From a virus (taxonomy: Duplodnaviria > Heunggongvirae > Uroviricota > Caudoviricetes), in the IMG/VR virus record IMGVR_UViG_2563366825_000016: DNA of 35,712 nt; one strand, written 5' to 3'. Below, one piece after another: positions 4,109 to 11,945 of this stretch. The first letter of the stretch is position 1, and the number at the start of each line of letters is the position of its first letter. The translations under genes were made by a program, and so were the position numbers. The notes below the pieces were generated by a model that ran no database searches, was not told where the DNA came from, and saw nothing but the letters and a program-made list of their open reading frames with translations.

Positions 4109-4405
4109 TTATACCTCTGAATCAATATCAACCTGGTGGCGGGCAATAGTTTCAACCATGTACCGGATGTGTTCTGCCATGCGTTCCTGAAACTCAACAT
4201 CGTCATCAAACGCACGGGTAATGGCTTTTTTGCTGGCCCCGTGGCGTTGCAAATGATCGATGCATAGCGATTCAAACAGGTGCTGGGGCAGGCCTTTTTC
4301 CATGTCGTCTGCCAGTTCTGCCTCTTTCTCTTCACGGGCGATCTGCTGGTAGTGACGCGCCCAGCTCTGAGCCTCAAGACGATCCTGAATGTAATAAGCG
4401 TTCAT
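4109..4405 (-). CDS. gam: Gam (RecBCD inhibitor), short 98-aa form
   Basis: [60 protein letters not shown]... matches the C-terminal 98 aa of lambda Gam; AGGAG about 5 nt upstream of ATG; the upstream sequence diverges so the long form is not encoded. Confidence 0.9.
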
Positions 4406-4480
4406 GGCTGAACTCCTGAAAATGGCTGTGAAAATATCGCCCGCGAAATGCCAGGCTGATTAGGAAAACAGGAAAGGGGA

Positions 4481-4687
4481 TTAGTGATTCAGGCCGTTAC
4501 CGCGTCCGTCGAGAAAAACTTCTACGAGCAAATCACGGGTATAAGTGCGCTCGATGCCGCGATGCAGATAAAGCCGTCCGCGTAAATTAGCTGATGCAGT
4601 CCAGGTACCATCTTTGTGTTTGACCAGCATTCCTGGCATGACCGCACCTCGATTAACGGTCTGCGTTCCGTAATGTTGATGAACCAT
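4481..4687 (-). CDS. Hypothetical small protein (kil/cIII position), 68 aa from internal ATG
   Basis: ORF 4481..4723 on track; AGGAG followed 7 nt later by ATG (MVHQHYGT...) supports start at 4687; function not recognised. Confidence 0.5.
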
Positions 4688-4892
4688 AAAAAACTCCTGC
4701 CCGTAAGCTGGGCTGCTGAACATATTGAGACTTCTGCGCGTATTCAGGCGGTGGATGGCCGCCGGTTGTCATAACTAAGTCGCCTCGTTGAAGCGACTGA
4801 GGTATGAAGTGTTGAGTTGATTTCAGCTGGTCACACCGACGTTCACGCGTCCGCTTCACCCCTCGCACTCCCCGGAGTCTGCTGAAATTCAA

Positions 4893-5130
4893 GCTGCGGA
4901 TCTAAGCGGTCATCGCAACGGTGAATCAGGTGGTTGCCGTATCGTTGTGTTGTTGCGATATGGTGATAATAGCTATTGCTATTGGTGATATCAATACTTA
5001 TCGCTATTGGCTGATGTGTTTTGATATTAAATGTTTGATAGCAAAAAGAATTAATTTTGTGACTTGCATCGCATAGCGATAACTGAAGCGGGGGTTATGG
5101 TGGTTTTTCGAACGGTTTGTGTGATGAGGG
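4893..5130 (-). promoter_or_regulatory. Putative leftward early promoter/operator region (pL/OL equivalent)
   Basis: About 240 bp without a convincing ORF between the cI operon terminator and the early-left genes; contains repeated GCTATTG(G) at 4972-4978, 4978-4985 and 5003-5010, and a palindrome ATCGCATAGCGAT near 5068-5080; the 9-mer TTGCTATTG also occurs in the cI-cro intergenic region. Confidence 0.45.
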
Positions 5131-5163
5131 GGAGGCAAAAGAAAACCCGGCACGGTGGCCGGG
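5131..5163 (-). terminator. Intrinsic terminator downstream of the cI-moron operon
   Basis: Hairpin CCCGGC-ACGGTG-GCCGGG at 5146-5163; on the minus strand it is followed by TTTTCTTTTG; sits 9 bp after the stop of the 310-aa gene. Confidence 0.5.
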
Positions 5164-5171
5164 TAGCATCA

Positions 5172-6104
5172 CTATTCGATTTTTTTAACCATGTAGTTAC
5201 GTCGTGATGTTCCTAATCTTTCATTGTGAATCTCAGAAACGCTTACTACGAGCGATATTCGTTCACCAACTTTATATTTACTTTGAATTTCTCCTAACAT
5301 ATCAATCGGATAAGAAGCCTTTATTTTTCCAAGCTCGCTTGCAATCTCCAATTTCCCGTACATGGATAAAATAGCAAGTTCGCCTGATATATGCTCATCC
5401 GGTAGCTGAATGACCTTCGTTAAAGCTAAGCGAGCATTCAGTTTTTTTATATCTTCTGAAGAAATTGACACTTGTCTGGTACCATCACTTAAAGGTCCAA
5501 TCCAAGTAAGATCAAAGTTAAGACTATATTTTTCGCACTCATTTATGATGTTTTTTAGGTTAGCTGTTGATTGCGAACCAATTTCGGCAATTTTAGCCGT
5601 GAATGTTTCTTCATCAATGGATGAGAGTAGTGCAAAAATCTCCTTAACAGCATGACTGGATACTGTTTCGATGAGCTCGCAAGAACCAGTAGAAAAAGTA
5701 ACACCTAACTTCGTCGAACCTGGACGCAAGTCTGCCAATCTCATGTCTAATGATTTTTTAACATCAATCGGCACACGACTAGAATCTTTCCCAGATCCAA
5801 GTCGGTAAACTGCTTTCTGTACAAGGGATGCGAGATTACCTGAAATTACAGATAGAATATCTAACGGAATAGACCCGAAATCGACCAAAACACCTTTTAA
5901 TCTCAACTCCATGAAATCACGTAAAGGATGTTGGTTATCGATTGCACGTTGTCTCTCTCGGAGATCGCTCAGATGGGAGTCAAGTGATCTAAATATAATG
6001 TCATCAGCAAATGATCTCCCCTTATTTTGAGCAAGCAGATCCACATCGCGTTGAATGAACGCAATTCGCTCCTTGAGGGAGTTGAATGTTTTTTCTTCGC
6101 TCAT
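5172..6104 (-). CDS. Unknown 310-aa protein, second gene of a two-gene module downstream of cI
   Basis: Long ORF; start ATG overlaps the stop of the upstream gene (ATGA, translational coupling); GAGGGT about 7 nt upstream; AT-rich relative to the lambda-like flanks; no domain recognised from sequence. Confidence 0.8.
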   Translation of the reverse strand: MSEEKTFNSLKERIAFIQRDVDLLAQNKGRSFADDIIFRSLDSHLSDLRERQRAIDNQHPLRDFMELRLKGVLVDFGSIPLDILSVISGNLASLVQKAVYRLGSGKDSSRVPIDVKKSLDMRLADLRPGSTKLGVTFSTGSCELIETVSSHAVKEIFALLSSIDEETFTAKIAEIGSQSTANLKNIINECEKYSLNFDLTWIGPLSDGTRQVSISSEDIKKLNARLALTKVIQLPDEHISGELAILSMYGKLEIASELGKIKASYPIDMLGEIQSKYKVGERISLVVSVSEIHNERLGTSRRNYMVKKIE

Positions 6105-6574
6105 AACATTACCCTCACGAGGCCTTTAGGATTCTCCTTCCGATCAAAACCAAACCACCCTCTCCAGTAACTTCGCCTTTCACTATAATCGATTTCTGGA
6201 TGATTTTCAGGCAGCAAAAGAACGTCAATGCTGTAGTTTTCTTTAATAAAATCTCTATTTAACAATGAGCTAACCAATGGCATCAGCGTGTTTGGCAAAG
6301 AGTTTAGGGCCAAATAATCGACGACCACGAGTATATCTATGTCATCAGGTTCAGGTTTCTCTGTAGTGAATGAACCATCGATCCACACTTCAGAGAAACA
6401 TAGACACTGCTGATTAACAAGTTTAAATTGCTCAATAAGCTGTATAAAATTACAGTATAGCATACTTCTTCTAACGGATTTTGGGAAGGTGTCGACACAA
6501 AGAGACTTGATGCCATCACTATCCATATCATGAAATCCTGCTGTAAGAAGAGGTGGGAAGCTAGGCTTTTCCAT
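6101..6574 (-). CDS. 157-aa protein with nucleotidyltransferase-fold-like motif, first gene of the two-gene module downstream of cI
   Basis: AAGGA RBS about 6 nt upstream of ATG; motif WIDGSFTTEKPEPDDIDILVVVD fits the pol-beta-type nucleotidyltransferase signature G[SG]-x9-13-DxD; located 81 bp downstream of the cI stop on the same strand. Confidence 0.8.
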   Translation of the reverse strand: MEKPSFPPLLTAGFHDMDSDGIKSLCVDTFPKSVRRSMLYCNFIQLIEQFKLVNQQCLCFSEVWIDGSFTTEKPEPDDIDILVVVDYLALNSLPNTLMPLVSSLLNRDFIKENYSIDVLLLPENHPEIDYSERRSYWRGWFGFDRKENPKGLVRVML

Positions 6575-6655
6575 CCTAAGTCCTTGTTTATGCCATATAG
6601 CGTTCTATTTAATATTCTTGAAAAGAGTGTGCCTTAAAAAGCTACAGGCTAATTA

Positions 6656-7348
6656 TTAACCATGCTTCCTGTACGTCTGCGGCATGCTCCCAATAACCTT
6701 ACCGAAGATGAACACCCGGTTCATCTCGTCTTTCTCGATCGGGTCCCACGGTGAGTAGCTCTTGTTATCAGAGATAACCAGTAGCTTATCTTTCATCATT
6801 TGCAGGCGCTTTACATGGGCTGTGTCGTCGTACAGAAACGCATAGATACCATCACCGTCGAAAGATTTAACCGTGATATCAACGAACAGCAGATCACCTG
6901 GTTCGATCGTTCCTGACATGCTGTCACCACGCACGTTAATGATGCGGATATTTTCCGCCTTCCTGCCATCGAACATGTGACGAGCATCGTCAAACGAGTA
7001 CTCAACCGAGCGTAGAACTTCTACAAACTCACGGTTGATTACACCCGGCCCGGCACTGACTTCTATATCAAGAACGTCAATTTTGAAGTATTTGGAATGG
7101 CTGACAGCAGGCTTCCCTGATTGTTGACCGTCATTTCTCATCGGGCCTATGCCTGATGAGAGCCATTCTGTTCGAACACCCAATGCATTAGCTATTTCAA
7201 CAATTTTTGTTGAGCCGCGCGCGTTGCCGCTTGTCAGTCTCCAGATTGTGGGTTGAGCTACGCCAGACGCCTTTGCAAGAGCGCCTTGAGACATTCCAGA
7301 TTGTTCCATCGCTAGGTTTAAGCGATCAGCAAGAGTTTCTTTTTTCAT
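6656..7348 (-). CDS. cI: CI-type prophage repressor (HTH + LexA-like S24 peptidase domain)
   Basis: N-terminal HTH (SQGALAKASGVAQPTIWRL); C-terminal autocleavage motifs VRGDSMSGTIEPGDLLFVD and HVKRL (Ser/Lys dyad); track start at 7384 is TTG, so I place the start at the ATG (MKKETLADRL) at 7348. Confidence 0.88.
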   Translation of the reverse strand: MKKETLADRLNLAMEQSGMSQGALAKASGVAQPTIWRLTSGNARGSTKIVEIANALGVRTEWLSSGIGPMRNDGQQSGKPAVSHSKYFKIDVLDIEVSAGPGVINREFVEVLRSVEYSFDDARHMFDGRKAENIRIINVRGDSMSGTIEPGDLLFVDITVKSFDGDGIYAFLYDDTAHVKRLQMMKDKLLVISDNKSYSPWDPIEKDEMNRVFIFGKVIGSMPQTYRKHG

Positions 7349-7458
7349 AAGTTTTAATTTATACGCTTGCGTATTGATGGTCAAAACATGTTTTGCTATT
7401 GCTTGGATTAATACGCATTGCTATTATTCATTCATTGCAATACCAATAGGAATTGATA
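7349..7458. promoter_or_regulatory. Divergent cI/cro promoter-operator region (OR/PRM/PR equivalent)
   Basis: Intergenic region between divergent repressor genes; inverted repeat ATACGC-TT-GCGTAT at 7361-7374; second ATACGCA at 7411-7417; TTGCTATTG at 7393-7401 and TTGCTATTA at 7418-7426. Confidence 0.6.
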
Positions 7459-7686
7459 ATGACAAATCAAACCATTCAACTCGCAATCAGTATTACAGGT
7501 AGTCAAAAACGACTGGCAGATCTATGCGGTGTAGCCCAACCCACTGTTTGGCGTTGGCTACACGGTGGCGGAATTGATGCCCGCTATGTAATGAAAATTG
7601 TCTCAGCCACTGGTGGAAAGATTAAACCAGCAGATATTCGTCCCGACCTCGCACCATTGTTTAACGCGAGTAATTCTGCCGCCTAA
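7459..7686 (+). CDS. cro: Cro-like HTH regulator (75 aa from the ATG)
   Basis: Small HTH protein (QKRLADLCGVAQPTVWRWL) divergent from cI; AGGA about 9 nt upstream of ATG at 7459. Confidence 0.8.
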   Translation: MTNQTIQLAISITGSQKRLADLCGVAQPTVWRWLHGGGIDARYVMKIVSATGGKIKPADIRPDLAPLFNASNSAA

Positions 7687-7710
7687 ACTGCGGCGTTAAC
7701 TGATAAGGCA

Positions 7711-8256
7711 ATGACTATGCAACCACTTACATACCAACAGACTAGCGGATTTATCCCGACTGCGGTGATAAATCGTTCTCAAATAAAACAGGTGCCAGGC
7801 CACGAAAAAATCCGTGATGCCATCCGCGCCTGGTCGGCTGTAGATAATCAGGATGTCGTTGCCGCACTCATTGTGAATGAGTATCGAGCACAGGGCGGCG
7901 GCACTATCGATTTTCCTGATGATGTCAGTCGTGCACGCCAGAAGCTGTTCCGCTTTCTCGATAACAAATTCGATTCTGAAAAATACCGAAATAACGTGCG
8001 TGAACTGACTCCAGCAATTCTGGCAGTACTACCGCTGAAATATCGCGGCCACCTGGTTGAGCAGGATAGCTTCATGGCTCGGCTGGCTGAAATGGAAAAG
8101 GAACTCAGTGAGGCAAAACAGGCTGTCATTCTCAACGCACCACGCCACCAGAAACTGAAGGAGATGAGTGAAGGCATTGTGTCGATGTTTCGTGTGGACC
8201 CGGATTTGGCTGGTCCATTAATGGCGATGGTGACCACCATGCTGGGGGCAATATGA
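7711..8256 (+). CDS. 181-aa protein in the cII position (possibly YdaT-like regulator)
   Basis: ORF starting 24 bp after cro; family assignment is from vague recollection only. Confidence 0.65.
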   Translation: MTMQPLTYQQTSGFIPTAVINRSQIKQVPGHEKIRDAIRAWSAVDNQDVVAALIVNEYRAQGGGTIDFPDDVSRARQKLFRFLDNKFDSEKYRNNVRELTPAILAVLPLKYRGHLVEQDSFMARLAEMEKELSEAKQAVILNAPRHQKLKEMSEGIVSMFRVDPDLAGPLMAMVTTMLGAI

Positions 8257-8342
8257 CAGGTTCAGAAATGGCGAAAGTCGGTCTGCGGGAACAGAACCGA
8301 CTTTCAGGTGCAAATCGTAACACACTCATTGCGGGAGGAATT

Positions 8343-11306: not shown

Positions 11307-11755
11307 AGCGATTATTCGTAATTGCTCCACTCTTAGTGTTGGTTGGATGCGCACAAAATATATCGCCAAATAGTTATTCTGTTGGCTCTGTGGGCATGGT
11401 TAATCGAACTATCGCTGGTACAGTTATTAGTGCTAGGGGGGTTGATATCAGTGGGACTTCCGCGTTAGGCGGGACTGCTGGGGCTGCCGTGGGGGCAACC
11501 GCTGGTTCTGCGCTTGGTGGGGGAGTTCGTTCTAATATCGTTGGTGCCGTTGGTGGTGCAGTCATTGGTGGTATTGCCGGGGCAGCAATCGAATCTTCAG
11601 CAACAAAACAAACAGGCATGGAATATGTTGTCGAAACTGAGAATGGGAATTTAATGACCATTGTTCAAGGCAAAGATCCGTTATTTACTCAAGGAAGTAA
11701 GGTCCTTGTTTTATACGGAAACCCTTCTCGCATAATAACAGACCCGCGTCACTAA
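11303..11755 (+). CDS. Glycine-zipper outer-membrane-type lipoprotein (150 aa)
   Basis: Lipobox LVGCAQ; long Gly/Ala-rich stretch GTSALGGTAGAAVGATAGSALGGG...GGAVIGGIAGAAI typical of glycine-zipper lipoproteins (SlyB / 17-kDa antigen type); 4-bp overlap with the preceding lipoprotein gene. Confidence 0.8.
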   Translation: MKRLFVIAPLLVLVGCAQNISPNSYSVGSVGMVNRTIAGTVISARGVDISGTSALGGTAGAAVGATAGSALGGGVRSNIVGAVGGAVIGGIAGAAIESSATKQTGMEYVVETENGNLMTIVQGKDPLFTQGSKVLVLYGNPSRIITDPRH

Positions 11756-11945
11756 CATACCTTTTGATTTTGTAAAATCAATTCGTAATAATAAAGTCAT
11801 CGGAGCTTGAACAACTCCGGTGACTTCTGCGCTAAACGGGGACGTTTATGCGCACATACAATCCAAACTCTCTTCTCCCTTCACAGATGCAGAAATGCAC
11901 CTGCGATTTTTTGCATCCAGCGTCTGACCTCTGCGGAGGTGAAGC

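Follow-up and report, generated by a model that had tools for sequence, protein, structure and literature searches.

The switch of phage lambda has a tripartite right operator (OR) between the divergent genes cI and cro and a second cluster of sites, the left operator (OL), on the leftward promoter PL about 2.4 kb away; accessory genes lie downstream of cI in one operon, and the -10 hexamer of PRM, the promoter of cI, stands directly before the cI ATG. In phages 434 and P22 the operators have conserved outer bases and a variable center, those of P22 being 18 bp long and the half-site of 434 being ACAA. A further described system is the PaaR2/YdaS/YdaT switch of prophage CP-933P in E. coli O157:H7 (Jurenas et al. 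2021, PMC8630535; Prolic-Kalinsek et al. 2023, PMC9986795), where electrophoretic mobility shift assays, footprinting and reporters have established that OR has 18-bp palindromes, that PL has three operators and that the repressor gene is leaderless (PMC8630535). Here we report on the immunity region (positions 4893 to 7458) of IMG/VR record IMGVR_UViG_2563366825_000016, a stretch of 35,712 nucleotides from a virus of the Caudoviricetes, the whole of which is referred to as the window. It is a lambdoid phage genome whose close kin are the Bievrevirus phage 4A7 and its relatives, and over positions 4400-7800 (3.4 kb compared) it is 99.9% identical to Escherichia phage PhiR30_1. The region is very probably a lambdoid prophage immunity region on the lambda plan (PL/OL, terminator, accessory cargo, cI, PRM/OR/PR, cro), and we hold with good confidence that the sites described below are the operators of an ordinary lambda-type switch and not a new mechanism. 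We did not find their binding specificity described in our literature search, and the nearest studied systems differ in specificity. A full-text search for the operator strings returned no paper with the 18-mer or the 14-mer, the matches to the 9-mers being unrelated primers, and the sole result of a search on the names of the PhiR phages was a paper using them as test phages.

The unit repeated in the window is an 18-bp pseudo-palindrome, YAATA-N8-TATTR, with the fuller consensus YAATASCAA|TTGSTATTR; its outer YAATA is near-invariant and its center variable, as in the operators of 434 and P22. Three copies lie in the 110-bp gap between cI and cro. OR1 (7409-7426; TAATACGCATTGCTATTA) has the top score in the window and is conserved with minor variants in all loci of the same specificity. 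OR2 (7384-7401; AAACATGTTTTGCTATTG), conserved across genera, has a consensus right half and a weak left half, and is exactly 25 bp from both OR3 and OR1. OR3 (7359-7376; TTATACGCTTGCGTATTG) has an identical sequence in all 79 IMG/VR loci where it scored, and in other genera. Two more copies lie about 2.4 kb away in a gap free of open reading frames (ORFs; 4893-5170), namely OL1 (4967-4984; TAATAGCTATTGCTATTG), which has seven of nine symmetric pairs and a counterpart in all same-specificity loci, and OL2 (4992-5009; CAATACTTATCGCTATTG), 25 bp from OL1. A sequence-only reading of this DNA had listed the strings ATACGCTTGCGTAT (7361-7374), TTGCTATTG (7393-7401), TTGCTATTA (7418-7426), GCTATTGCTATTGG (4972-4985) and GCTATTGG (5003-5010), all of which are present, as are the ORF-free gap and the cI-operon terminator that it described; it had also recognized that neither the repressor nor cro is lambda's, which agrees with a cI of HTH_3 and Peptidase_S24 type whose N-terminal domain is nearest the 434 repressor and with a YdaS-type Cro. 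Its view that a repeat is shared by the two regions stands, but the unit that functions is longer than a 9-mer direct repeat: TTGCTATTG is the right half of the 18-bp consensus. Likewise the inverted repeat ATACGC-TT-GCGTAT exists as read, but as the core of OR3, that is as another copy of the 18-bp site.

The locus shares with lambda its gene order and logic, the tripartite OR, the second cluster on PL about 2.4 kb off, the accessory genes 3' of cI and the position of the PRM -10, and the site spacings (25/25/25/20 bp) are close to those of lambda (24/23/24/20 bp). OL1 and OR1 are 2442 bp apart here, compared with 2407 bp in lambda, and the earlier suggestion that an inserted two-gene module had spaced the operators more widely than in lambda was wrong; the module is not a stretching insertion, since lambda has rexA-rexB in the same slot at a similar OL1-OR1 distance. 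In 75 related contigs this distance ranges from 1454 to 2777 bp depending on the cargo, with two outliers near 6.4 kb. The differences from lambda lie in the parts: the operator sequence is unrelated and the sites are 18 bp and not 17 bp long, cI has an N-terminal domain of the HTH_3/434 type, Cro belongs to the YdaS type and CII to the YdaT type, PDC-M63 cargo replaces rexAB, and no N gene lies downstream of PL. Over cI and OR, megablast detected no similarity to lambda DNA. Judged on its sequence, the region is not of imm-lambda specificity, i.e., a lambda-type cI with 17-bp operators of lambda consensus. CP-933P is similar in having a YdaS-type Cro and a YdaT-type CII, accessory genes 3' of the repressor (a toxin-antitoxin pair in CP-933P), PL operators resembling those of OR, and four intergenic 18-bp palindromes, compared with three and a possible fourth here. 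It differs in operator consensus (GTTTAGTAA there, YAATASCAA here), in its repressor (PaaR2 there, a classical S24-bearing cI here) and in the fourth site, which is equally spaced in CP-933P, whereas here three sites at 25 bp are followed by a fourth candidate at +29; moreover, CP-933P is a cryptic prophage, whereas the present system is carried by inducible, plaque-forming phages. The 434 half-site also differs from the YAATA found here, and the similarity of the cI proteins is too weak to imply a shared specificity.

Both clusters lie on predicted promoters. The predicted PL (4966-4994, minus strand; -35 TTGATA at 4994-4989, 17-bp spacer, -10 TATTAT at 4971-4966; 10 of 12 consensus matches) is the best leftward promoter match in the gap, with its -10 within the outer half of OL1 and its -35 overlapping the edge of OL2; a Klebsiella relative has TTGCTA-17-TATTAT at the same position. 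It is predicted to drive the leftward early operon kil, gam, bet and exo. The predicted rightward promoter PR (7399-7427, plus strand) has the -35 TTGCTT (7399-7404), a 17-bp spacer and the extended -10 TGcTATTAT (7419-7427), and reads TTGCTA-17-TATTAT in relatives. OR1 covers the PR -10 and OR2 overlaps the PR -35, so that PR on OR1/OR2 is the mirror image of PL on OL1/OL2. The predicted PRM (7356-7384, minus strand) has the -35 TTGACC (7384-7379), a 17-bp spacer and the -10 TAAATT (7361-7356); OR3 lies between its two hexamers and OR2 adjoins its -35. A Klebsiella phage keeps both PRM hexamers and their spacing, and the -35 and OR3 segment is kept across genera. Because the PRM -10 ends 7 nt before the cI ATG and no Shine-Dalgarno sequence was found before this ATG, the cI transcript is probably leaderless or nearly so, as are those of lambda and CP-933P.

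Sharing between the two regions was measured by counting k-mers common to 4940-5060 and 7349-7458 on both strands, with 2000 dinucleotide-preserving shuffles of these AT-rich (about 30% GC) sequences as the reference. There were 55 shared matches at k=6 (19.8+-6.1 in the shuffles) and 26 at k=7 (6.0+-3.4), and at neither length did any of the 2000 shuffles reach as high; at k=8 there were 12 (1.8 in the shuffles), a count reached in 1 of 2000. Four of the five exact copies of GCTATTG in the 35.7 kb are inside the two short intergenic regions. A matrix made from the two clearest OR sites alone found its best non-training match in the 35.7 kb at 4967-4984, inside the proposed OL, and the top six matches of a four-site matrix in the window were all in OL or OR (five distinct sites, two matches overlapping at the fourth OR-side site discussed below).

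Homologous prophages, whose conservation of the repeats had been proposed as a check by the sequence-only reading, carry the same two clusters wherever the same cI N-terminal domain occurs. The clusters are found in PhiR30_1, in 4A7 (with ASCH cargo), in an O157:H7 prophage (whose cargo is SIR2 and whose OL flank differs), in Klebsiella phages with about 82% cI identity, in a P22-like Salmonella phage with an N gene, and in prophages of Kluyvera, Citrobacter and Raoultella; the phages which share the clusters have different cargo, flanks and neighboring genes. The two OL sites are spaced by 25 bp in 77 of the 80 related loci. Of 5426 complete E. coli genomes, 719 (13%) had the immunity cassette, composed of the cI N-terminal domain and OR, as did more than 500 IMG/VR contigs. 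From one mosaic phage or genus to another, the motif thus goes with cro and the N-terminal domain of cI, which supports the earlier proposal that the repeats are OL and OR operators of one immunity specificity.

A further comparison is with heteroimmune siblings, which share the backbone of the window and the DNA on both sides of OL and differ in the cI N-terminal domain, in cro and in the operator motif at OL and OR. In PhiR5_1, PhiR47_2, PhiR34_1 and PhiR26_1 YAATA-type sites are absent at OL and at OR, and ACAACC/GGTTGT repeats are found at both instead. At OL a cassette of about 95 bp (4959-5053) is swapped as a block between immunity types: in PhiR5_1, PhiR47_2 and PhiR34_1 it is replaced by a block of equal length (95 nt) with ACAACC/GGTTGT repeats, and PhiR26_1 has the same replacement block behind a slightly diverged left flank. 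The cI of PhiR5_1 has a C-terminal domain 100% identical to that of the window, with a different N-terminal domain and a different cro. A Klebsiella grimontii prophage (L019; 90% in the C-terminal domain and 51% in the N-terminal domain) lacks the sites, and at OR, the part that was read, it has ACAACC repeats; a Kluyvera georgiana prophage (L020; 95% in the N-terminal domain and 43% in the C-terminal domain) retains all four sites. The loci without sites were L003 (PhiR5_1), L010-12 and L019, and those keeping them L020 and L015-18. Judged by this double dissociation of the N- and C-terminal domains, the operators follow the DNA-binding domain and not the rest of cI or the phage. Cro is 69-85% identical to that of the window where a same-specificity locus is intact, and 46-48% identical where the locus is heteroimmune. 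The YdaT-type cII analogue is 95% identical in heteroimmune PhiR5_1 and therefore lies outside the specificity cassette. The cI genes of PhiR5_1, K. grimontii and K. georgiana are domain chimeras with the junction in the linker, at about residues 65-80. Where heteroimmune phages whose cI C-terminal domains are 100% identical reside in one cell, their repressors could assemble into mixed oligomers.

The window and its relatives show where the sites lie, how they are arranged and that they are strictly co-inherited with cro and the N-terminal domain of cI; binding, the order in which sites are filled, cooperativity, activation of PRM and looping between OL and OR are inferred by analogy with lambda (annotation and established knowledge) and with the experimentally characterized CP-933P switch. 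On this basis cI dimers would bind the operators through their 434-like N-terminal helix-turn-helix domain, those at OL1 and OL2 (25 bp apart) occluding the PL -10 and -35 and those at OR1 and OR2 occluding PR. Repressor at OR2, adjoining the PRM -35, could activate PRM, and the low intrinsic score of OR2 (8.9-12.1) suggests that its filling may need to be cooperative. The position of OR3 inside PRM would allow PRM to be shut off at high repressor level, and the YdaS-type Cro would work through the same operators as cI to set the lytic direction. PRM would transcribe cI, probably as a leaderless message, and the two-gene cargo, with transcription ending at the terminator short of OL. Upon an SOS response, cI would undergo autocleavage through its Ala-Gly, Ser and Lys signature, leading to prophage induction.

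It should be noted that several observations weigh against this account. In the whole window neither the 9-mer with up to one mismatch (12 matches, 11.0 expected) nor the 7-mer GCTATTG (5 matches, 5.1 expected) is enriched, and the lone exact 9-mer shared by the two regions is only weakly significant by itself (48 of 2000 shuffles). All promoter calls are consensus matches from a scan that overall is not enriched over shuffles, and PR, which is under the threshold of that scan, was read by eye with its hexamers re-checked. OR2, the possible OL3 and the 5036 site (see below) are half-good matches only. The consensus was drawn from matrix-selected sites and is partly circular, and the count of 405 matches in the OL/OR clusters with 2 elsewhere in 85 loci (934 kb, at the chosen threshold) overstates independent support, given that the matrix had been trained on sites of the window itself and the related loci are homologous and not independent. 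The motif could be read as a by-product of AT-rich composition and of two similar sigma-70 promoters (TATTAT, TTGNTA), and not as a protein-binding site; besides the missing window-wide enrichment and the marginal 9-mer, the half-site does contain a -35-like TTGCTA and a -10-like TATTAT hexamer. We nevertheless consider this extremely improbable. At k=6 and k=7 none of the 2000 composition-matched shuffles reached the observed sharing, the same palindrome also fits OR3 and the inner site halves, which are not promoter hexamers, and the 25-bp phasing of the OL pair is held in nearly all loci. The heteroimmune siblings, which must have promoters at these positions too, carry a wholly different repeat at both places.

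Granted that the sites are bound, the comparison cannot assign them to cI or to Cro, since the two proteins always co-vary, and the intergenic region footprinted by the CP-933P repressor is footprinted by YdaS as well (PMC8630535). The main protein to recognize the sites could then be the YdaS-type Cro or a different factor of the cassette, with cI acting elsewhere or at a subset of them, e.g., at OR only, and the 4960-5010 cluster serving Cro. This appears quite unlikely to us, as the lambdoid switches studied (lambda, CP-933P) have repressor and Cro on shared operators, a stable prophage must silence PL and cI is the sole repressor made in the lysogen, and the operators follow the cI N-terminal domain even where the C-terminal domain has been replaced, as in K. 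georgiana. As for OL, the 4960-5053 repeats might not be an early-left operator at all: their role might be to regulate a small gene or a rightward promoter in the OL region, or they might be a recombination linker traveling with the immunity cassette. The sharp, conserved boundaries of the OL cassette would suit a linker; Klebsiella relatives have a rightward 67-aa ORF just to the right of OL with TTGATA-like hexamers in front of it, and in the window direct TTTGATA repeats occur at 5020 and 5034. In the window, however, there is no credible rightward ORF at this place, and the two strong sites lie exactly on the best leftward promoter of the region, with OL1/OL2 on PL showing the same promoter-operator geometry as OR1/OR2 on PR. 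In the Salmonella phage, moreover, the pair is in the intergenic gap upstream of the N gene, where OL is expected. A role other than that of early-left operator is therefore very unlikely, and a lambda-type pair of OL and OR operators remains the preferred explanation of the two clusters.

Further copies of the motif are less certain. On the OL side a possible weak OL3 (5012-5029; TGATGTGTTTTGATATTA), 20 bp from OL2, has four of nine symmetric pairs and only its right half is good; a good Klebsiella site, TGATAGCAATGGCTATTA, occupies this position, likewise 20 bp from OL2. A possible further half-site (5036-5053; TGATAGCAAAAAGAATTA) forms an inverted repeat with OL1, and its matrix score is 10.1 in the identical PhiR30_1 copy and 7.7 with an OR-only matrix on the window; we regard both of these OL-side candidates as tentative. 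For the second Klebsiella OL site the register CCATAGCAATACGTATTG was rejected and CAATACGTATTGATATTA chosen because it keeps the 25-bp phasing seen everywhere else. On the OR side a possible fourth site (7438-7455; CAATACCAATAGGAATTG; score 17.9, seven of nine symmetric pairs) lies 3' of where PR is predicted to start and spans the ribosome-binding site of cro. Its offset from OR1 (+28/29) is maintained from genus to genus, phage 4A7 shows a symmetric double change in it (CAATA..AATTG to TAATA..AATTA), and the heteroimmune type has its own motif (GGTTGTT) at this position. The same-specificity loci may have a four-site OR which, if cI or Cro occupied the fourth site, would give the control of cro a roadblock or a translational layer that is absent in lambda; we put this forward as a tentative possibility. 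Conservation of the fourth site could be explained equally by constraint on the cro ribosome-binding site, which is a point against its being an operator.

From left to right the region contains exo, bet, gam and kil (minus strand), the ORF-free gap, the terminator, two cargo genes, cI, the 110-bp gap, cro, the YdaT-type cII analogue, and O and P. The cI repressor (6656-7348, minus strand; 230 aa, ATG start at 7348) consists of an HTH_3 N-terminal domain and an S24 autocleavage domain (Pfam HTH_3 E=1.8e-6, Peptidase_S24 E=1.3e-18); its score against the Phage_CI_repr profile is under the cutoff. The closest solved relative of the N-terminal domain is the DNA-binding domain of the 434 repressor (E=1.6e-5), the C-terminal domain matches UmuD, and the autocleavage signature (Ala99-Gly100, Ser143 in GDSM, Lys180 in VKRL) is invariant in the alignment. 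A TTG start at 7384, as annotated in PhiR30_1, was rejected because homologues in other genera begin MKKETLA and the extension would cover OR3 and PRM. The PhiR30_1 GenBank record is likely misannotated at this point, its TTG-start cI engulfing both elements, and also at OL, which is covered by a 'hypothetical protein' ORF (4960-5076, plus strand); the RefSeq record of 4A7 uses the cI ATG. The cro gene (7459-7686, plus strand; 75 aa) encodes a YdaS-type, P22_Cro-like helix-turn-helix protein (Pfam YdaS_toxin PF15943, E=9.6e-15), and the cII analogue (7711-8256, plus strand) is of YdaT type (Pfam YdaT_toxin PF06254, E=5.6e-29).

The cargo occupies the rexAB position (5172-6574, minus strand) and is composed of PDC-M63B (5172-6104), which has no Pfam family, and PDC-M63A (6101-6574), which is DUF6932 (Pfam E=4e-26); PADLOC assigns the module to the candidate defense system PDC-M63 (E=4e-42 and 7e-43). 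Relatives with the same cI hold HipA/DUF3037, ASCH, SIR2, a Ser/Thr kinase, BamD/E-like lipoproteins or GevT/GevA in this slot, and this variety marks the slot 3' of cI as a cargo hotspot. The intrinsic terminator of the cI-cargo operon, just before OL (5145-5164, minus strand), has a stem of seven pairs, six of them G-C, followed by a T-run, and an equivalent hairpin is present in PhiR5_1 and in the Klebsiella phages. The block from OL to the terminator (5054-5144) is conserved in heteroimmune siblings with different cargo and so is a fixed junction.

Downstream of PL no N homologue was found in the window. The PL leader (about 150 nt, within 4747-4959, minus strand) is conserved only within this group of phages. 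Given that there is no N gene and that the relative HK639 has an annotated putL, a put-like antiterminator RNA 3' of PL was considered; it found no support, as the pL-putL of HK639 does not align and the leader folds no better than shuffles (z=+1.27). An Rfam scan of 4300-8300 at permissive E-values gave just two chance-level matches, and the leader matched no Rfam family. A block of 60 nt (4747-4808) shared with HK225 and phi80 was considered as part of the operator region and rejected, since it belongs to the kil module; it lies just upstream of kil in the window and just downstream of N in phi80. Two overlapping minus-strand ORFs are named 'Kil' in relatives, one at 4481-4687 (in 4A7) and the other at 4653-4859 (in PhiR30_1). 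The former fits HK225 Kil by position and length, and the latter overlaps the conserved 60-nt block and is doubtful. In CP-933P a YdaT box, TTGATTN6AATCAA, is found at the cro/ydaT junction (PMC9986795). At the 3' end of the window cro there was no match to this box. Elsewhere one match with a single mismatch covers the cro start codon (7453-7470) and an exact one lies in the gap after an ORF ending at 11755 (11764-11781); with up to two mismatches the window has 8 matches, compared with 2.3 expected.

These results leave the understanding of lambdoid switches unchanged, and their value lies in what knowledge of the operators allows. Superinfection-immunity groups become predictable from sequence, and common misannotations, such as the ORF over OL and the TTG-start cI, can be corrected. 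An orthogonal repressor/operator pair is also on offer. The natural swaps of the cI N-terminal domain, OR, cro and OL provide a clean illustration of the modular evolution of immunity.

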